Below the pieces are notes generated by a model that was not told the DNA's origin, made no database searches, and saw only the letters and a program-made list of their open reading frames with translations. Below are positions 8,388 to 23,193 of a DNA stretch of 24,000 bases, piece after piece. The first letter of the stretch is position 1. Every line of letters starts with the position of its first letter. The position numbers and the translations under genes were made by a program. The DNA comes from Opitutales bacterium. GTDB lineage: Bacteria > Verrucomicrobiota > Verrucomicrobiia > Opitutales > Oceanipulchritudinaceae. Location: positions 23,258 through 47,257 of the forward strand of contig SLLG01000074.1 in assembly GCA_007134215.1 (NCBI GenBank), written 5' to 3'.

Positions 8388-9608
8388 TTACGTGCTTCCC
8401 GCCGCCGCCCGCCACGCGCTACGGTAAAGCCCGTAGCTGAGGAGGGCCATGAGGGGCACGGCGACAATACCCGCACCCGGCACGATCTGTAGAGCGATGA
8501 GGAGAAGCAGCGCGATCTTGAGAAGGATTTTGAGGAGTAGGCTGCGCCCCGCCGGCAAATAGCCGATAAACGGTGCCACGAGCGCGATGCGGTAGTAGAT
8601 CACGCCGGGAATCAGCCCCAGCACCGGAACGAAGCTAAAGAGCGCGGAGATACCAAGCACCCTCGGCAAACGCGCCACAATACCGCTGTCGTAAGCCGCG
8701 ACAAAGGCAGCATCCGCGAAGGGCCGCCGACCGCAGGCGGAGCATTCCTGATCGGTGGCACGCTCCTTAAGCCGCGTCGCGCACCGCGGGCAGCGCTTCT
8801 TCTCCGCGAGGCGCAGGGCCGCCGCCGCGCGGTCCCCGGCGGGCCGGTCGAGCGCCTGGCCGAAAAACCCGATTGCCCGCGCCTCGTCGCGGGGAGCGTC
8901 GCACTCCGGGCAGTGCAACGCGCTCGGAAACACCGGCGCACCGCAGGCGGCGCAGGGGCGCTTTGTTTTTTCCTCCCGGCGCTCGTGCCATTTCGCCGTC
9001 GCCCACAACCCGGTCATCACGGCGACGATGAGGATCGCCATGCCCACAGGATACAGAAAGAGAAAGACCATCCCGATGCCCGCCCACACATCCTCGAACC
9101 AACTCAGGAGCGTGCGGATGCCGAGCACACCGTCCGGATCGGCCATCGCCACCAGCCCCATTACCCCGTTGCGCAGCGAAGCCAGCGTCCACACCACAGC
9201 CGCAAGGCACACGCTCAGCGCGGTATCGAAAAATCCCGCCTGCGCCACCGGGATCATATCCTCGATAAATTCAGCGTCGCCCGATTGGAGCACCCCCAGC
9301 ATAGTCAGCGCCGCCACCCCGCTCTTTGCCCACTTGTAGCCCGCCGCCATCCACTCGTCGAGATCCGGCGACTTGCTTGCCGCGATCTCGAGGAGAGCGA
9401 GCACTCCGAGCGCGAGGATCGTCCAGTTGCTCGTGAACCACGACGGCTCCCGCCCCGTCGCCTGCAGAAACTCCACCTCGCCGAGAAACGGCAGGCGGTC
9501 GCCGTAGCGCATCATCAGCGCCGTGAAAAAGGCTGGCAAAAACGCCCGCGCACTGAACAGCCCCGCCGCGCCGAGCGCGTAAAGAATCGCGTTGAGTTCC
9601 CATTCCAT
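8388..9608 (-). CDS. Polytopic membrane protein: DUF4126-like N-terminal domain + two zinc-ribbon motifs + C-terminal 3-helix membrane domain, 406 aa
   Basis: The track ORF starts at TTG 9704; I trimmed to ATG (plus cat 9606-9608), MEWELNAILYALGAAGLF. The DUF4126-like pattern is SARAFLPAFFTALMMRYG ... LALLEIAASKSPDLDEW. The soluble linker has CAACGAPVFPSALHCPEC (CxxC-x10-CxxC, aa 219-236) and CPRCATRLKERATDQECSAC (CxxC-x12-CxxC, aa 273-292). Hydrophobic helices span aa ~315-395. Confidence 0.7.
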   Translation of the reverse strand: MEWELNAILYALGAAGLFSARAFLPAFFTALMMRYGDRLPFLGEVEFLQATGREPSWFTSNWTILALGVLALLEIAASKSPDLDEWMAAGYKWAKSGVAALTMLGVLQSGDAEFIEDMIPVAQAGFFDTALSVCLAAVVWTLASLRNGVMGLVAMADPDGVLGIRTLLSWFEDVWAGIGMVFLFLYPVGMAILIVAVMTGLWATAKWHERREEKTKRPCAACGAPVFPSALHCPECDAPRDEARAIGFFGQALDRPAGDRAAAALRLAEKKRCPRCATRLKERATDQECSACGRRPFADAAFVAAYDSGIVARLPRVLGISALFSFVPVLGLIPGVIYYRIALVAPFIGYLPAGRSLLLKILLKIALLLLIALQIVPGAGIVAVPLMALLSYGLYRSAWRAAAGST

Positions 9609-9630
9609 AGTCGCTGCCTCCCGTTCCGCA

Positions 9631-9652
9631 GGCCGGCGAAAACCGCCCGGCC
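9631..9652 (-). other. GC-rich hairpin in the 129-nt gap between the extended-Hcp gene and the membrane-protein gene
   Basis: The plus strand reads ggccggcg-aaaa-ccgcccggcc: a 6 bp perfect stem plus 2 further pairs across a one-base bulge. On the minus-strand RNA the U-run sits in the loop, not after the stem, so it is not a canonical intrinsic terminator. Function is unknown. Confidence 0.3.
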
Positions 9653-9737
9653 CAATGACATGCGTGAAATCAACCCCCGTAACCGGGACAGCGCAACGCA
9701 ACAATATTCCTGCGGAGAACAGCGACGCTACACCGTT

Positions 9738-11018
9738 CTATTCGCCGCCGGAAACACGCACCTCGAAACGGAGGAAGATCGGTTCCGTGTCTTCCGTCGT
9801 GACGGCCGCCTCCACGCGCTCGAAGAACGGATTGTCCGTTTCGCGCACCGTCTCCTCATAGAGCGGGTTCTCTCGTCCGAGCGAAAACCACGATTGAAGG
9901 TCCGCCGATCCCCAGAGTCGGCCGTAGACATTCGGTTCGTCGACACGGCGCTCGTAGCTGAGGCGAAGGACGCGCGCTCCGTCACCGCCGGCCGCGTACC
10001 CACCGTCTTGGAGGCGGATCGGAGGCGCATTGGATTCGCGCGGATTCAACCCGAAAAAGAATGCCATGACAATAGGCAATCCGTCGCCAGACGCGTCGTG
10101 CAGCGGAGAAGACAGCCGGGGGTCTTCATCGAGTTGTTCCTGCGAAAAGTAGGCTTGGAGAAATCCTTCGTACGGCGTGCGGTCACCGCCGACAACGACG
10201 AGAAACGACATCGACCGCGTACCCTCCCCGTCTGTGAGGTCGACACGGACGGGCGCGGAGACATCCGAGAGCAGCGGAGACACCGTCAAACGGAGCGTCC
10301 AGGCGGTGCCCGCTCCGTCCAGCGAGACCTCCGGAAACCGCGCCGGGTCCGCCTCCACAGAGACCGAAAACGCATGATCTTCCGAAGGCAAATCAATGAT
10401 CGTAAGCGGAACGGTGAGGCGCTCGCCTGGCACGGCGGCCTGATGCGCGACCTGACGGACGGACGGCAACGGATCGGGCGGGGCGTCACTCTCCAGAATG
10501 CCACCGGTCTGTGCGGGGATGTCCCAGTAGGCTCCCGCTGTGAATCGCGGTATTCCGTCGGGGCCGGGAGAGCGGTAGAGCCAGTCCGCGCGCGCGAAGT
10601 GCAACCCGACCGACTCCGCAGCCTCGTCTTCCAGCGTACCCACGAGGTCCAAACTACGCACCATCACGTCCCGCAATCTGTATTCGAAGTACACATACGG
10701 ACCGTCGGGGCCGGCACGCCGCAACTCGAGGACGGCCTCCGGAAAGATGGCTCCGGTCGCGACCGCACGCGCGAAAAGCGGTGAAGCGGAGTCAACCGCC
10801 TTTCCGATGACCAAGTCGGAAAACGCTGCCGGACCGTCCAACGCATCGCGCACGAGGCCGGAAGAAACGGCACTGACGTCGATCCATCCCTCCCGGCCTG
10901 TTTCGGCGTGGTCGCCCTCAATCGAGTCGATCCGGAGCAGAAGGGAGTCCGGCGCGGCGAATGCCGACGCCGCGCAGAGAAACGCCGCGAACAACCGCAT
11001 GTGGAAGCGGATTGCCAT
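9738..11018 (-). CDS. Signal-peptide-bearing Hcp-fold protein with a ~250-aa C-terminal extension (Ig-like beta-sandwich + uncharacterised tail), 426 aa
   Basis: ATG at 11016-11018 lies 7 nt downstream of the preceding stop. The leader is MAIRFHMRLFAAFLCAASAFA/APDS (AxA-type site). The Hcp-like core spans aa ~25-172: LLLRIDSIEGDHAETGREGWIDVSAVSSG, GKAVDSASPLFARAVATG, VLELRR, YFEYRLRDVMVRSL, VGLHFARADWLYR, YWDI. No in-frame ATG lies between the leader and the core. Confidence 0.75.
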   Translation of the reverse strand: MAIRFHMRLFAAFLCAASAFAAPDSLLLRIDSIEGDHAETGREGWIDVSAVSSGLVRDALDGPAAFSDLVIGKAVDSASPLFARAVATGAIFPEAVLELRRAGPDGPYVYFEYRLRDVMVRSLDLVGTLEDEAAESVGLHFARADWLYRSPGPDGIPRFTAGAYWDIPAQTGGILESDAPPDPLPSVRQVAHQAAVPGERLTVPLTIIDLPSEDHAFSVSVEADPARFPEVSLDGAGTAWTLRLTVSPLLSDVSAPVRVDLTDGEGTRSMSFLVVVGGDRTPYEGFLQAYFSQEQLDEDPRLSSPLHDASGDGLPIVMAFFFGLNPRESNAPPIRLQDGGYAAGGDGARVLRLSYERRVDEPNVYGRLWGSADLQSWFSLGRENPLYEETVRETDNPFFERVEAAVTTEDTEPIFLRFEVRVSGGE

Positions 11019-11025
11019 GGCCGGC

Positions 11026-11598
11026 CTACACTTCCTCGTTCTTCTGGATGTCCCACCCCACGGGAACTGGCGCTCCGGCGCTACCGTCGTCCTCCGTCGG
11101 CTTGTAGGTGTACGTGAACCGCGCGAAATTCAGGGTGATCGTCTCTTCGGGTATCTCCGTCCGGGACCCGCTTGTTTGATAGGAGGTGACGATGACGTTC
11201 TCGAACTCGAAGACAAGATACGGCACCCTCTCGCCTGCGGCACTCTCTCGATAAACAGTCAATTTCGCCGAGGGGGCGTGCAATCCCGAAGCAGTACGTA
11301 ACGCCAATTTCGGCGATGCCTTGTCCGTTCGCTTTGTAATGGTAAAATCAGAAACGCTCACCTTGCCCGAACCGCCGCCTGTGGCGGTGTGGGTCGTGCC
11401 GGAGTTCCGCAGGCCCCACGACCACGAAAAGACTTCAATCTCATCGCGGTGGGCCTTGTCCTTCGACTCACCTTCGATGCCCTCGAACTTGAGAAAAGCG
11501 GCACCCTGCATCGGGACAGCGACCGCCAGACTCAAGGCCAAGAGCGGGAGAATCCGGACGATCCAGGCAGGCCGGTATGATAGGATCATTAGCTTCAT
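11026..11598 (-). CDS. hcp: Hcp1-family protein (T6SS tube-protein fold), 190 aa as drawn with a putative N-terminal Sec signal peptide; alternative leaderless start at 11511 (161 aa)
   Basis: A by-eye alignment with canonical Hcp1 runs over the whole length: AAFLKFEGIEGESKDKAHRDEIEVFSWSWG, GGGSGKVSVSDFTITKRTDKASPKL, AKLTVYR, YLVFEFENVIVTSY, ETITLNFARFTYTYKP, VGWDIQKN. The upstream 29 codons from ATG 11598 encode MKLMILSYRPAWIVRILPLLALSLAVAVP. An internal ATG (plus cat 11509-11511) would give MQGAAFLKF..., colinear with leaderless Hcp1. Confidence 0.85.
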   Translation of the reverse strand: MKLMILSYRPAWIVRILPLLALSLAVAVPMQGAAFLKFEGIEGESKDKAHRDEIEVFSWSWGLRNSGTTHTATGGGSGKVSVSDFTITKRTDKASPKLALRTASGLHAPSAKLTVYRESAAGERVPYLVFEFENVIVTSYQTSGSRTEIPEETITLNFARFTYTYKPTEDDGSAGAPVPVGWDIQKNEEV

Positions 11599-11607
11599 AA
11601 TGAAGCT
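11591..11607. repeat. 17-nt perfect palindrome (agcttcat-a-atgaagct) overlapping the upstream ATG of the hcp-like gene
   Basis: Read directly: 11591-11598 agcttcat, 11599 a, 11600-11607 atgaagct. On the minus-strand mRNA it can form a 7-bp stem with a 3-nt loop that includes the AUG at 11598. Alternatively it is a dyad operator. Confidence 0.4.
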
Positions 11608-11723
11608 GGATTAGCCCTTCGAATGCCCCGCGTCAAGAAAATCCCTGTTCGCCCCCAACGGGGATCAATAAACCGGAGAAACGCACGTGCCGTCCGCTTC
11701 TTTCACTGGCGCGGCGAAGTCCT

Positions 11724-20492: not shown

Positions 20493-21023
20493 ATGCACGA
20501 CGCATCCAGCCCCCTGCCGGCGGAGTCTTCCGGAGTCGAACCCGATTCCGGGTCCGCCTCCAAGATCATCGGCAACGCCGAGGCGATGGAAGCCTACCTG
20601 TACGCGCACATCCCCCTCGCCGCCGCGATGGGCGTGCGCGTGCGGGAGGCGGGCATCGGGTCCACCGTCCTCGAAGCCCCCCTCGAGCCCAACCGTAACC
20701 ACCGCGCCACCGCCTTCGGCGGCAGCCTGTCGGCCCTCGCCATCCTCGCCGGGTGGACGGTCGTCAACTGCGTTCTGCGGGCGCGCGATATCGCCGGAAG
20801 CATCGTCATCCAGCGCAGCCGCCAGCACTTCGCCGAGCCGGTCGCAGAGGCCTTCCGCGCCGTCTGCGAGGGGCCCACGCCCGCCGCCATGGCGCGCTTC
20901 ATCGAGGGCGTCGAACGCTACGGCAAGGGCCGCATCCGCCTGCGCGTGGCCATCCACACCGCCGACGACCGGCGCACCGGCACCTTCGAGGGCGATTACG
21001 TGGTCGACGCCACCGGCGCCTGA
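20493..21023 (+). CDS. YiiD_C-like hotdog-fold putative thioesterase, 176 aa
   Basis: This is the last 176 codons of track ORF 18819..21023, from ATG 20493; the upstream part of that ORF is an out-of-frame shadow of tkt. [19 protein letters not shown] ... [29 protein letters not shown] ... [14 protein letters not shown] matches my recollection of the YiiD C-terminal domain family. The start could instead be the internal MEAYLY Met. Confidence 0.7.
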
Positions 21024-21046
21024 GCGCGAGTCCGCCCAATCTCCGG

Positions 21047-22405
21047 ATGAAACAACGCACCATCCTTCGCGAAGCCAGCACCCACGGCAAAGCCCTGCAC
21101 ACCGGCCAGGAGGTCACCCTCACGCTCAAGCCCGCCCCGGAAAACCACGGCATCGTCTTCCGCCGCGTCGACCTCTACGGAAAGCCCGAAGTCAAGCCCG
21201 CCATCGAACTGGTCAACGAACAGCTCGTGCGCAGCACCGACATCACCGCCGGTCACACCAAGCTCCACACCATCGAGCACGTCCTCAGCGCCCTCGTCGG
21301 CTGCGGGGTCGACAACGTCATCGTCGAGCTGAACGCCTCCGAGCCCCCCATCCTCGACGGCTCCGCGAAGCACTTCGTCAACCTCATCCAGCGCGCCGAG
21401 CCCGTCGAACAGGAGGCCGAGCGCGAGGTCTTCGTCCTGCAAGATCCCATCTCCGTCACCGACGGCAACCGCTCCATCATCGCCCTGCCCTACGACGGTT
21501 TCAAGGTCACCTGCACAAGCGCCGACGACCGCGGCATCCACACGCAGCACCTCTCCCTCGACATCGATCCCGAGACCTACATCGCGGACATCGCCCCCGC
21601 GCGCACGTTCACCGTCTACGAGGATATCGAGCCCCTCCTCAAGATGGGCAAAATCCAGGGTGGCAGCCTCGACTCCGCCATCGTCATCAAGGGCAACCAG
21701 ATTCTCTCCAAGGAACCCCTGCGCTTTGAGGACGAGTTTGTGCGGCACAAGATCCTCGATATTGTCGGCGACCTCGCCCTCCTCGGCACGCGCCTTAAAG
21801 CGCATATCGTCGCCGTGCGCACCGGACACAAACTCAACGCCGACCTCTCCAAGGCCATCTACGCGCGCATGCGCGCCAAACCCGAGCCCAAGGCCCTCGA
21901 GCCCATCCGGCGCGACCGCCGTCCCAAGGGACCGCGCATCATCGGCCCCGACGAAACGGAAGTCATGATCCGGCGCATCCTCGACATGCTGCCGCATGCC
22001 TACCCTTTCGTCATGATCGACCGTGTGACGAAGATCGTCAGCGACACCGAGCTGTTCGCCATCAAAAACGTCACCATCAATGAACCCTTTTTCGTCGGAC
22101 ACTACCCGGGCAACCCCGTCATGCCCGGCGTCCTCCAGATCGAATCCATTGCCCAGGCTGCCGGCATTCTCATGCTCCGCCAAGTCGACGCCGAGGGCAA
22201 GGTCGCCCTCTTCATGAGCGCCGACCGCGTCAAATTCCGCCGTGCCGTCGTTCCCGGCGACCGCCTCGACATCCACGTCAAACTTACCAAAGTCCGCGGC
22301 AAGCGCATCGCCGTGTGCGAGGGCGTGTGTACCGTGGAAGGGCAGCTCGCCTGCTCCGGCGAACTCATGTTCACGATCATGGACATCCCCGAAGAAGGCC
22401 TCTGA
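21047..22405 (+). CDS. lpxC/fabZ: Bifunctional UDP-3-O-acyl-GlcNAc deacetylase / 3-hydroxyacyl-ACP dehydratase (LpxC-FabZ fusion), 452 aa
   Basis: ORF 20753..22405 trimmed to ATG 21047 (MKQRTILRE). LpxC motifs: [67 protein letters not shown]. FabZ motifs: [42 protein letters not shown]. Confidence 0.93.
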
Positions 22406-22410
22406 ACGCC

Positions 22411-23193
22411 ATGGAAGACGCGGCCCGCATTCATCCAACCGCCCATATCGAACCCGGAGCGCGCCTCGGCCCCGGCACGGAGGTCGGTCCCTTCGCCTAC
22501 ATCGGCCCGCGCGTCTCCATCGGCGCGGGATGCCGCATCCACCACCACGCCACCGTCGAGGGCAACACCACCCTCGGCGACAACTGCGAGGTGTTTCCCT
22601 ACGCCTTCATCGGCGGGCGCACGCAGGACAAAAAATGGACCGGCGACGAGGCCCCGGTCCTCATCGGCAACCGCAATATTTTCCGCGAGTTCTGCACCGT
22701 CCACCCCTCCACCTTCGCCGACAGCGCCACCCGCATCGGCGACGACAACCTCTTCTGCGCCTACGCCCACATCGGGCATGAGAGCACCGTCGGCAGCCAC
22801 TGCGTCTTCTCCAACAACGCCACCCTCGGCGGCCATGTCGCGGTGGGTGACTACGCCGTCATCGGCGGGCTCACCGCCGTGCACCAGTTCTGCCGCGTCG
22901 GCGAGAGCGCCATGCTCGCGGGCTGCGCCAAGGTCGTGCAGGACGTCCTCCCCTTCATGACCGCCGACGGCCACCCCGCTGTCCACCGCACCATCAACAA
23001 AGTCGGCATGCAGCGCCGCGGCTTCCCGCCCGAGCGTGTCCAGCTCGCCGCGCGCGTCTTCAAACACCTCTTCCGCTCCGGCCGCAACCACGGCCAGGCT
23101 CTCAAAGACCTCAAATCCGGCGCCCTCGGCCAAGACCCCCTCATCGACACCGTCGTCGCCGCCATCGAAGCCTCCACGCGCGGATTCTCCTGA
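22411..23193 (+). CDS. lpxA: Acyl-ACP--UDP-N-acetylglucosamine O-acyltransferase, 260 aa
   Basis: ORF 22315..23193 trimmed to ATG 22411, 5 nt after the lpxC/fabZ stop. It has left-handed beta-helix hexapeptide repeats (IHPTAHIEPGARLGPGTEVGPFAYIGPRVSIGAGCRI ...) and an LpxA-type C-terminus (NKVGMQRRGFPPERV ... KHLFRSG). Confidence 0.93.
   Translation: MEDAARIHPTAHIEPGARLGPGTEVGPFAYIGPRVSIGAGCRIHHHATVEGNTTLGDNCEVFPYAFIGGRTQDKKWTGDEAPVLIGNRNIFREFCTVHPSTFADSATRIGDDNLFCAYAHIGHESTVGSHCVFSNNATLGGHVAVGDYAVIGGLTAVHQFCRVGESAMLAGCAKVVQDVLPFMTADGHPAVHRTINKVGMQRRGFPPERVQLAARVFKHLFRSGRNHGQALKDLKSGALGQDPLIDTVVAAIEASTRGFS

Follow-up and report, generated by a model that had tools for sequence, protein, structure and literature searches.

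Two adjacent genes on the minus strand of an Opitutales genome, designated ORF1 and ORF2, likely encode an exported ring module that is built from Hcp, works independently of a type VI secretion system (T6SS), and bears a tether or adhesion domain on ORF2. The genes lie in a stretch of 24 kb (24,000 nucleotides), the whole of which was analyzed and is called the window. In the proposed mechanism, each protein would be synthesized with a cleavable Sec signal peptide that directs it through the inner membrane. Folding into the Hcp beta-barrel would take place in the periplasm or on the cell surface, where hexameric rings, either homomeric or mixed, would probably form. ORF1 would supply the plain ring subunit. 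The contribution of ORF2 would be an Ig-like domain, a TSP3-like motif, and a C-terminal beta-sandwich by which the ring is tethered or presented. The ring would act as an oligomerizing scaffold for extracellular or adhesive domains. Proteins exported across the inner membrane would not be subunits of the cytoplasmic T6SS tube. We infer the export and cleavage, the assembly of rings and hetero-oligomers, and the role in tethering or adhesion. Similar Hcp pairs with predicted export leaders are present in other bacteria, and at the loci covered none adjoins genes of the T6SS machinery, which points to an undescribed second use of ring-forming Hcp.

The gene pair, its predicted leaders, and the ORF2 extension

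ORF1 (11026-11598, minus strand, stop codon 11026-11028) encodes 190 amino acids and ORF2 (9738-11018, minus strand, stop codon 9738-9740) encodes 426. Both belong to the T6SS_HCP family PF05638, whose whole profile is covered by residues 35-165 of ORF1 (E = 3.4e-38, 131.3 bits) and which matches residues 28-148 of ORF2 (E = 1.7e-18, 67.6 bits); each passes the Pfam gathering threshold of 23.5 bits. ORF1 also aligns, from its residue 34, with Hcp1 of P. aeruginosa (PA0085, PDB 1y12; E = 1.3e-39). The NCBIfam model of the TssD tube protein subfamily, TIGR03344, has a cut-off of 58.9 bits that neither protein reaches, with ORF1 at 58.8 bits (0.1 short) and ORF2 at 35.0 bits. A PHROG of unknown function, phrog_27303, is matched by the Hcp-pair proteins as well. 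The two genes are separated by a 7-nt spacer, GCCGGCC (11019..11025, minus strand), read as TAG-GCCGGCC-ATG from the stop codon of ORF1 to the start codon of ORF2, and they probably constitute one two-gene operon. Since ORF1 and ORF2 have the Hcp fold and family in common, ring formation is likely, and by analogy with Hcp the assembly would be hexameric. The fold was assessed by AF2 and Foldseek for ORF2 and by sequence against 1y12 for ORF1.

The mature Hcp domain of ORF1 (residues 33-190, 11029..11502, minus strand), delimited with PF05638 and 1y12, follows a predicted leader, MKLMILSYRPAWIVRILPLLALSLAVAVPMQG, that occupies codons 1-32 (11503..11598, minus strand). The heuristic signal-peptide scan finds a basic n-region of net charge +3, a 13-residue h-region (ILPLLALSLAVAV), and a P-x-x-G c-region (PMQG), with cleavage predicted before AAFLKF. 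This c-region (P-M-Q-G) places Met at -3, where signal peptidase I sites seldom have it. The leader has the coding pattern GC3>GC1>GC2, and its third position is G or C in 24/32 codons (0.75) versus 0.72 in the gene body. Codon 30 is an in-frame ATG (Met30; 11509..11511, minus strand) placed exactly at the canonical Hcp start (MQGAAFLK versus MAVDMFLK), and may be either an alternative start or a relic of an ancestral leaderless start. No Shine–Dalgarno-like sequence is found upstream of this ATG.

The predicted leader of ORF2, MAIRFHMRLFAAFLCAASAFA, spans codons 1-21 (10956..11018, minus strand). In the heuristic scan it has a net charge of +2, the h-region LFAAFLCAASAFA, and an A-F-A motif ahead of the predicted cleavage site, before APDS. 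ORF2 has only three start codons, M1, M7, and the TTG of codon 9, all of them inside the leader, and no start codon occurs between the leader and the Hcp core. On the basis of a basic n-region, an h-region of 7-15 residues, and small residues at -1/-3, both ORFs are predicted to carry Sec signal peptides by a heuristic that is lenient, its false positives being cytoplasmic Rossmann-type N-termini in the window. A lipoprotein reading of ORF2 was rejected, as the context of Cys15, A-F-L-C, is unlike a lipobox.

The initial annotation of this DNA had described tandem Hcp-fold genes with a 7-nt gap, and both the PF05638 search that it had proposed and the spacer itself agree with that description. 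Its internal ATG of ORF1 at 11509-11511 is confirmed as codon 30, and its estimate that the third-position G+C of the leader resembles that of the gene body holds at 32 codons. It had read both genes as appearing to carry Sec signal peptides, which the scan and the conservation of leaders in a syntenic orthologue support. The absence that it had noted of an in-frame ATG between the leader and core of ORF2 is likewise seen, and a non-ATG start past that leader, which it had named as evidence against its reading, was looked for and not found.

A divergent Hcp domain of ORF2 occupies approximately residues 22-175 (10494..10955, minus strand) and was identified by PF05638, AlphaFold modeling, and Foldseek. 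From the single sequence, AlphaFold gave a pLDDT of 37.6, which is unusable. A 42-row alignment rescued the Hcp domain, with a pLDDT of ~85-97, and the two C-terminal domains reach only moderate confidence; residues 1-20 have a pLDDT <50. The top Foldseek matches of this AF2 model are all Hcp structures. Its target-normalized TM-score is 0.93 on Hcp 4tv4, with an rmsd of 1.6 Å, and 0.85 on 1y12. The modeled fold of ORF2 is the Hcp beta-barrel.

Beyond the Hcp core, ORF2 has a C-terminal extension of ~250 aa that the initial annotation had missed. The middle domain (approximately residues 196-277, 10188..10433, minus strand; AF2 strands E200-276, pLDDT 55-75) is predicted to be an all-beta, Ig-like sandwich; it has no Pfam match, and the Opitutales orthologue is its sole homologue. 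The motif DASGDGLPIVMAFFFGLNP at residues 308-326 (10041..10097, minus strand) was compared with the long partners of other Hcp pairs (P0061/L007 and L040) and, by eye only, resembles their calcium-binding TSP3-type motif, D-x-D-G-[LM]-P...G-[LT]-N-P. A C-terminal beta-sandwich (approximately residues 333-426, 9741..10022, minus strand; AF2 strands E335-422, pLDDT 60-86) ends in FLRFEVRVSGGE, and its layout matches the ‘...FYRV’ C-terminal domains of other long partners, whose C-termini are RRFYRVQVLPVN in L040, RVFRVEAVIP in L007, and GFYRIRID in L009. When the extension is queried alone, the Opitutales orthologue is the only homologue found, which makes a deep alignment impossible. Searches of the extension against Pfam, NCBIfam, and PADLOC families, toxin families included, gave no match.

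Leaders in the orthologous locus and among relatives

The same Hcp pair, in the same gene order, is present in the Opitutales MAG GCA_020831525.1 (locus L001). The leader of its ORF1 orthologue, MKLITAFLHSGRRVHIVPLCAMAAVFALSAPLHG, has the architecture seen in the window with a different sequence and is equally hydrophobic. The orthologue retains the upstream ATG and ATGAAGCTAAT and has no ATG beside the Hcp core; a Met30-type ATG is absent from it (LHGSLAAFLK) and from the relative P0009 (LVQGAAFLK). Indels between the two ORF1 leaders are 6 and 9 nt, both multiples of 3. Judged from the aligned sequences, the leader is conserved as a leader, in its physicochemistry, frame, and start codon. 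The ORF2 orthologue has the leader MSTRFHMRVCAAFLCAVAASA, with cleavage predicted before SP, and an AxA-type site occurs in both species. The cross-species comparison favors genuine leaders. The window and L001 are orthologous loci and count as one observation, not as two independent ones.

Purifying selection acts across leaders, cores, and C-terminal extension (dN/dS 0.23-0.52 versus L001). Both Hcp cores and the extension of ORF2 have a ratio of 0.24, and the leader of ORF2 has one of 0.23. Constraint on the ORF1 leader is only weak, with a ratio of 0.52 from its 32 codons, where dS is nearly saturated. The only well-conserved intergenic stretch between the window and L001 is a block, GGGATTTTCTTGACGCGGGGCATTCGAAGGGCTAATCCAGCTTCATT, that ends at the ORF1 ATG (11599..11650, minus strand) and runs directly into the common ATGAAGCTAAT. 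This block is a possible promoter, which would leave a very short 5′ UTR; a sigma-70 consensus scan of the block gave no call, so that we infer its promoter function.

N-terminal extensions are found in 10 of the 120 closest homologues, and all 10 are hydrophobic and Sec-like or twin-arginine; among these, the gene call of P0002 is truncated at its 5′ end and P0004 was judged by eye. Among the best 150 representatives of a profile search, single-domain Hcps comprise 35 with Sec-like leaders, 2 with Tat-like leaders, and 28 without a leader, and a further form, with exactly six Hcp domains per chain, accounts for 48 and indirectly supports the assembly of hexameric rings. Many of the leaders end in ...A-x-A followed by AVDMFLK, the canonical Hcp N-terminus minus its Met, and in some relatives a lipobox-like leader stops immediately ahead of the canonical N-terminus. 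Among P0003-5, P0216, and P0220, a T-R-R-N-A-M-K motif can be seen ahead of an Ala/Gly-rich h-region; TIGR01409, with a cut-off of 16.7 bits, gives 13.4 bits for P0004 and 14.3 bits for P0005. P0177, a fusion of Hcp1 to paramyxovirus F with a eukaryotic-style leader, was judged a synthetic construct and left out.

In the metagenome loci, an ATG stands at the start of the core in 82/84 leaderless Hcp ORFs and in 0/10 leader-bearing ORFs. Where leaderless Hcps of these loci have a long in-frame upstream region, none resembles a signal peptide (0/18). A neighbor-joining tree of 287 Hcp cores places ORF1 in a clade of 7, all of them leader-bearing; in this crude tree the leader-bearing Hcps as a whole are not one clade and fall into 30 pure groups with 23 parsimony changes.

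The pairing of a short with a long Hcp recurs at 9/11 leader-bearing loci, where the long one has an extracellular-type C-terminal extension. The tandem arrangement of the window is also seen in L001, L007, L009, L015, L040, and L056. A scan of a genome collection with ORF1 returned two loci, one of them informative (L009). The extensions of relatives include TSP3, cadherin, Ig-like, Big_9, and MG2-type domains, types that belong outside the cytoplasm, and PF18884 (TSP3_bac) is matched by P0061 and P0222. The chances appear evenly balanced that the pair represents a widespread class of Hcp rings exported by Sec, by Tat, or as lipoproteins in Verrucomicrobiota, Kiritimatiellota, probably Planctomycetota, and possibly some archaea. 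Such a class would have two forms, one of short and long pairs and one of single chains with six Hcp domains and cadherin, Ig, dockerin, or RTX modules, and its ring would be an extracellular hexameric scaffold, adhesin hub, or fiber and not an injection tube. A search of the open-access full-text literature turned up no paper that describes Hcps with signal peptides or with multiple domains, which is weak evidence of novelty.

Genomic context and alternative explanations

The remainder of the 24-kb window consists of housekeeping genes. These encode MurJ, a TPR protein, acetyl-CoA hydrolase, LOG, a DUF4126 protein, a 3-keto-disaccharide hydrolase, a GFO/IDH/MocA protein, LysRS, PanE, SSF, transketolase, YiiD, LpxC-FabZ, and LpxA; the gene next to ORF2 is that of the DUF4126 protein, a membrane protein of 400 aa. 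T6SS families are absent from these other genes, HMMs built from the T6SS genes that adjoin other Hcps have no match in the window at E<=1, and defense-system models also have no match. Coverage comprises the 24 kb of this genome, ~20 kb of a contig (L011) that is 99% identical, and 21 kb of the relative. No T6SS core is present in those 21 kb of the orthologous contig (L001) or in 9 other leader-bearing loci. T6SS core genes, counted as TssC, TssF, TssE, TssG, TssA, ClpV, VgrG, and TagJ, flank 52/75 leaderless Hcp loci versus 0/11 leader-bearing loci from the same scan (p = 1.2e-5). Restricted to loci of 4 kb or more, the comparison is 32/35 versus 0/7 (p = 4.5e-6).

A passage of PMC8262886 describes the T6SS sheath and Hcp tube as assembled in the cytosol. 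A working subunit of that tube would be leaderless and cytoplasmic, translated from the first beta-strand; ORF2 and the ORF1 orthologue appear to carry leaders, and ORF1 is ambiguous in this respect owing to Met30. The initial annotation had recognized no T6SS machinery in the 24 kb, as the family annotation and the HMMs bear out. Its core idea of a Sec-exported Hcp that does not serve a T6SS gains support from the leaders of the orthologue, the leaders and extensions of relatives, and the 0/11 loci with T6SS flanks.

The principal alternatives concern the start of ORF1. The pair could be ordinary orphan hcp genes, with ORF1 translated leaderless from the ATG at 11509-11511 to feed a T6SS elsewhere and the 29 upstream codons merely a 5′ UTR left open by chance. 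It is common for hcp genes to occur as orphans at a distance from T6SS clusters, 29 open codons are not improbable at 65% GC, and the core of ORF1, with an ATG at the exact canonical position, is strongly similar to that of a working T6SS Hcp1 (PA0085). This account is nevertheless unlikely, given that the orthologue lacks the core ATG and yet keeps the upstream ATG, the conserved block, a hydrophobic leader, and indels of 3n. Leaders in every member of the ORF1 clade also speak against it, as do the 0/18 upstream regions of leaderless Hcps that resemble a signal peptide, the absence of T6SS neighbors from all 11 leader-bearing loci, and ORF2, which, 7 nt downstream, cannot avoid its own leader. 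Alternatively, ORF1 might have a dual start: a long form would be exported, and a short form lacking the leader would stay in the cytoplasm, where it might serve a T6SS. Two in-frame ATGs, each at a functional boundary, would suit such an arrangement, which is highly improbable because the second is not kept in the orthologue or close relatives and has no Shine–Dalgarno-like sequence ahead of it, and no T6SS gene is present in the 24-kb window.

Other alternatives accept the leaders and differ in the fate of the proteins. The leaders could be uncleaved signal anchors that hold the Hcp domains at the inner membrane, on its periplasmic side, and the unusual Met at -3 of ORF1 is in keeping with this. 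We consider such retention very unlikely, for h-regions of ~13-15 residues are short for a membrane-spanning helix, and textbook A-x-A sites directly precede the first Hcp strand in ORF2 and many relatives. The rings might also be a periplasmic decoy or sink that protects the cell by binding Hcp-dependent effectors or the incoming tubes of a neighbor's T6SS. Hcp is a receptor and chaperone of T6SS substrates, with small effectors bound in the lumen of the ring, and the location would suit the interception of toxins that act in the periplasm. A protective role of this kind is an extremely slim prospect, however, with no supporting context, no match to defense-system models, and long partners that bear domains of adhesion or tether type and nothing that points to neutralization. 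An exported, T6SS-independent ring module is the reading that we prefer to these four.

Hcp counts as a hallmark of the T6SS, and an hcp gene is routinely taken as evidence for one; in public pipelines the proteins described here receive the name “type VI secretion system tube protein Hcp”. Should Sec or Tat export many Hcps to a role outside the cell, the T6SS is overcounted in censuses of PVC bacteria and metagenomes. The tail-tube fold would then have been recruited for an extracellular role so far uncharacterized, and two things that protein engineers make by hand, a covalent Hcp ring of six domains and an Hcp scaffold for display, would already exist in nature.

Comparison with known systems

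ORF1 and ORF2 share family and fold with Hcp/TssD (PF05638; Hcp1 PA0085, 1y12). Canonical Hcp has no signal peptide, starts with MAVDMFLK, assembles in the cytoplasm, and is flanked by T6SS genes (tssB/C/E/F/G/clpV/vgrG) in 52/75 sampled loci, whereas the pair has predicted N-terminal export leaders, no T6SS neighbors, and a fixed short-plus-long arrangement. The tail-tube proteins of contractile phages and extracellular contractile injection systems have a distantly related tube-protein fold. Their tubes also assemble in the cytoplasm from proteins without signal peptides, and, unlike these systems, the window has no sheath, baseplate, or spike genes near the pair.

The layout of ORF2, an Hcp domain at the N-terminus followed by a C-terminal extension, is shared with the Hcp-ET type, the specialized effectors of Enterobacteria in which extended Hcps carry C-terminal toxin domains. 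ORF2 differs from these in that it matches no toxin family, has a predicted beta-sandwich extension and a predicted signal peptide, and is not followed by an immunity-like gene. The extensions of its relatives are also unlike Hcp-ET toxins, being TSP3, cadherin, or Ig-like. Engineered Hcp1 fusions are found among the sequence matches, namely GspE-Hcp1 (PDB 4ksr), Vps4-Hcp1 (6ap1), and TrwK-Hcp1 (7o42). Those are laboratory constructs of cytoplasmic ATPases, whereas the partners here are natural and of extracellular type, in proteins with predicted export. In the constructs the Hcp ring imposes sixfold oligomerization on the attached domain, the same principle that is proposed for ORF2 and for the natural six-Hcp chains.

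The Hcp pair and its surroundings

The two adjoining Hcp-fold genes run head to tail along the minus strand, with ORF1 at 11026-11598 (190 aa) and ORF2 at 9738-11018 (426 aa), separated by a 7-nt spacer (TAG-GCCGGCC-ATG). Both match the Pfam family T6SS_HCP (PF05638) well over threshold, ORF1 with 131.3 bits at residues 35-165 and ORF2 with 67.6 bits at residues 28-148. P. aeruginosa Hcp1 (PDB 1y12) aligns with ORF1 from residue 34 to the end (E=1.3e-39). The AlphaFold model of ORF2, computed from an input alignment of 42 sequences, has a pLDDT of ~85-97 across residues 21-180 and overlays solved Hcp structures (4tv4: TMt 0.93, rmsd 1.6 Å). The remaining genes of the window are housekeeping: MurJ, a TPR protein, acetyl-CoA hydrolase/GNAT, LOG, a DUF4126 membrane protein, 3-keto-disaccharide hydrolase, GFO/IDH/MocA, LysRS, PanE, an SSF transporter, transketolase, YiiD, LpxC-FabZ, and LpxA. 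The initial annotation of the pair was accurate in each checkable detail, including coordinates, spacer, Hcp identity, and surroundings. It described ORF2 as a leader and a divergent Hcp core, both of which are present, and overlooked ~250 residues past the core.

Immediately downstream of ORF2 (8388-9704, minus) is a gene for a multi-pass membrane protein of ~400 aa with weak matches to DUF4126 and a double-zinc-ribbon. It is kept beside the pair in the related Opitutales MAG and in a near-identical contig (405-406 aa) and is absent from more distant pair loci. The GC content is ~58% for ORF1 (11029-11598), ~64% for ORF2, and 65.4% for the window. The nearest non-orthologous relative of ORF1, P0009, is on a 37% GC contig of the same ENA sample (ERZ27301263) and has the ...QG/AAFLK.EGIEGES junction in common with it; together with the low GC of ORF1, this likeness could indicate horizontal transfer. 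Elsewhere in the window, one long ORF (20753-22405, plus) matches both LpxC and a FabA/FabZ-type dehydratase and is followed by LpxA (22315-23193). Many long antisense ORFs, such as 8913-10784 on the plus strand (623 aa), are artefacts of 65% GC.

Leaders and the start of ORF1

A 29-kb metagenome contig matches the window at 99% identity, and the one clear relative is the Opitutales MAG GCA_020831525.1, which holds the same pair between the same neighbors with protein identities of 63% and 62%. The ORF1 orthologue opens with the same ATGAAGCTAAT, and the ~45-nt block 5' of it is the sole conserved intergenic part. The residues of the orthologous N-terminus, MKLITAFLHSGRRVHIVPLCAMAAVFALSAPLHG/SLAAFLK, are unlike those of the window leader, and indels of 6 and 9 nt separate the two; common to both are a basic n-region, a hydrophobic stretch of 13-15 residues, and P-x-x-G. 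With GC of 0.59, 0.41, and 0.75 at codon positions 1, 2, and 3 (0.53, 0.49, and 0.72 in the body), the ORF1 leader is coding-type in composition. The ORF2 leader, MAIRFHMRLFAAFLCAASAFA/APDS, is conserved as MSTRFHMRVCAAFLCAVAASA/SP in the orthologue, with A-x-A-type sites in both. An earlier observation that the window has no in-frame ATG between this leader and the core extends to GTG and TTG.

Nei-Gojobori dN/dS between the window and the MAG, calculated with dS of ~1 and thus near saturation, is 0.24 for the ORF1 core, 0.52 for the ORF1 leader, 0.23 for the ORF2 leader, and 0.24 for both the ORF2 Hcp domain and extension. Both genes, extension included, are therefore under purifying selection.

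One alternative considered is a mis-called start of ORF1, with a T6SS encoded elsewhere. Met30 (ATG 11509-11511) sits exactly at the canonical Hcp start (MQGAAFLK vs MAVDMFLK), and a leaderless product is possible from the window sequence alone. However, this methionine is missing from the orthologue and close relatives, and is for that reason read as a probable relic of an ancestral start. The orthologue has no ATG beside the core, and its sole internal ATG would leave a 16-residue extension. Two further alternatives considered keep the leader and differ in its use: ORF1 may have dual starts, for which Met30 would be the obvious second site, or the leaders may be uncleaved signal anchors, a reading to be set against the A-x-A-type sites of ORF2.

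Leader-bearing relatives and their loci

Among the 120 closest ORF1 homologues, ~110 are leaderless Hcps of 156-164 aa. The other ten carry N-terminal extensions, all of them hydrophobic leaders, seven Sec-like and three twin-arginine (T-R-R-N-A-M-K, then an Ala/Gly-rich stretch); this count allows for P0002 as a 5'-truncated gene call and P0004 as read by eye. Scores from the Tat model TIGR01409 (13-14 bits) fall below its cut-off of 16.7 and are no more than suggestive of Tat signals. Twin-arginine leaders (TRRNAMKAGAALAG) occur in P0003, P0004, P0005, P0216, and P0220. A profile of leader-bearing sequences gave 19,983 matches among 1.84 billion representatives. Within the best 150, a simple heuristic assigned the single-domain proteins a Sec-like leader in 35 cases, a Tat-like leader in 2, and none in 28. 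Many leaders in this set end in A-x-A with AVDMFLK next (...NADA/AVDMFLKIDDIE, ...FASQA/AVDMFLKLDGIA), so that the signal peptide replaces only the initiator methionine of a canonical Hcp. Lipobox-like sites are found in at least two relatives, P0194 (LLPG/C) and P0220 (Tat motif and AAG/C), so the one fold seems to be served by as many as three export routes.

Given that the heuristic is lenient, also flagging Rossmann-type N-termini of cytoplasmic enzymes in the window, reliance was placed on a within-family contrast among the Hcp ORFs of 80 metagenome loci. An ATG lies within three codons of the core start in 82 of 84 leaderless ORFs and at the core in none of ten leader-bearing ORFs. No signal-peptide-like stretch was found in the 18 leaderless ORFs with at least 20 in-frame upstream codons. 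Where a source is named, leader-bearing Hcps come, among others, from Verrucomicrobiota and Limisphaerales MAGs and from Pontiellaceae bacterium B12219; automatic annotation labels all of them T6SS tube protein. One candidate was rejected: P0177 (440 aa) joins a eukaryotic-style signal peptide, an Hcp1 like that of P. aeruginosa, and part of the paramyxovirus fusion glycoprotein F0. A synthetic origin, as a vaccine or nanoparticle construct, is almost certain, and this sequence is a contaminant when leader-bearing Hcps are searched for.

The ORFs on either side of the Hcp genes were all clustered, and recurrent clusters named by Pfam. TssC/VipB neighbors 39 of 75 leaderless loci, TssF 28, TagJ/ImpE 26, TssE 23, TssA 21, TssG 17, ClpV 16, and VgrG 6, and each neighbors 0 of 11 leader-bearing loci (effectively ten independent loci, as the window and L001, the MAG locus, are orthologous). 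Any of these neighbors is present in 52/75 leaderless vs 0/11 leader-bearing loci (Fisher p=1.2e-5), and in 32/35 vs 0/7 loci of at least 4 kb (p=4.5e-6). Six-frame translations of leader-bearing loci gave no match at E<=1 to the T6SS-cluster HMMs, and the claim that the 24 kb of the window hold no recognizable T6SS genes stands.

Two Hcp genes, both with leaders, are found in nine of the 11 non-redundant leader-bearing loci (the window, L001, L007, L009, L015, L040, L052, L056, and L083), in divergent orientation in two of the nine. Such loci combine a short Hcp (180-200 aa) with a longer one that bears a C-terminal extension; the unit is the pair. The extensions differ by lineage, and every type is extracytoplasmic: TSP3 calcium-binding repeats and a C-terminal beta-sandwich ending ...FYRV (L007/P0061, L040, L009), aspartate-rich repeats (L015), an MG2-like domain with repeated P-x-W-x-K-N-N-A-x-W-W-A motifs (L056, L052, L083), or cadherin/Big_9 (P0193). 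The ~250-residue extension of ORF2 has the layout of other long partners, with a predicted Ig-like sandwich at its start (residues ~196-277), a DASGDGLP...GLNP motif (308-326), and a C-terminal sandwich (~333-426) ending FLRFEVRV; its sole detectable homologue is the Opitutales orthologue.

Several leader-bearing loci (among L005, L052, L056, and L083) are AT-rich, with 35-37% GC. L005, the context of P0009, also encodes a Trm5/TYW2-type tRNA methyltransferase of the archaeal/eukaryal kind, and the long partners of the other three end in repeated P-x-W-x-K-N-N-A-x-W-W-A-x-G-x-I-x-D-x-D-F motifs. These contigs may be archaeal, which would place Hcp in organisms not known to carry a T6SS.

A proposed exported ring and known Hcp systems

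T6SS tubes polymerize inside the sheath in the cytosol (PMC8262886), and a Sec- or Tat-exported protein is consequently barred from tube assembly. This is the ground for proposing an exported Hcp ring. ORF1 and ORF2 would be co-transcribed, exported, and processed, and would fold into Hcp rings in the periplasm or at the surface. An appendage for tethering or adhesion would come from ORF2, with ORF1 occupying the other ring positions or forming rings of its own. An anti-T6SS decoy was considered as another role for exported Hcps.

Domain counts bear on the ring. Among the best 150 of the 19,983 matches, 68 proteins have one Hcp domain, 15 two, 3 three, 7 four, 2 five, 48 six, 2 seven, 1 eight, and 1 eleven. 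The six-domain chains (P0123-P0135 and others from the profile search) are 1000-3650 aa long, and Pfam confirmed six T6SS_HCP stretches in 6/6 proteins tested. The chains are fused to modules of the Big_13, Big_9, cadherin, RTX, and dockerin types. Each resembles a hexameric Hcp ring made naturally as one polypeptide, and the 48 chains with exactly six domains support the ring, not an injection tube, as the functional unit. A basic stretch followed by L-E-x-R-x-L-L-[SA] opens 22 of 54 proteins with at least five Hcp domains, e.g., MSSPMLARRRLFLEQLEARRLFA (examples are P0123, P0125, P0127, P0129, and P0139), and no single-domain Hcp; it may be a lineage-specific, perhaps planctomycete-type, export or sorting signal.

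The sequence-level evidence on the Hcp pair is solid; export, cleavage, ring assembly, and a tethering role are inferred. Full-text searching of open-access papers turned up no account of Hcps that bear signal peptides, occur in pairs, or have six domains, which is weak evidence of novelty. By sequence and fold, ORF1 and ORF2 belong to the Hcp/TssD family, with ORF1 scoring 0.1 bit under the NCBIfam TssD cut-off. A working T6SS tube subunit, however, is leaderless, cytoplasmic, and T6SS-linked, and the pair differs from it in both its leaders and its neighborhood. Toxin-extended Hcps resemble ORF2 in layout only. A parallel in use is engineered: Hcp1 has served as a forced-hexamer scaffold (PDB 4ksr, 6ap1, 7o42), the same use as is proposed here for the Hcp ring.
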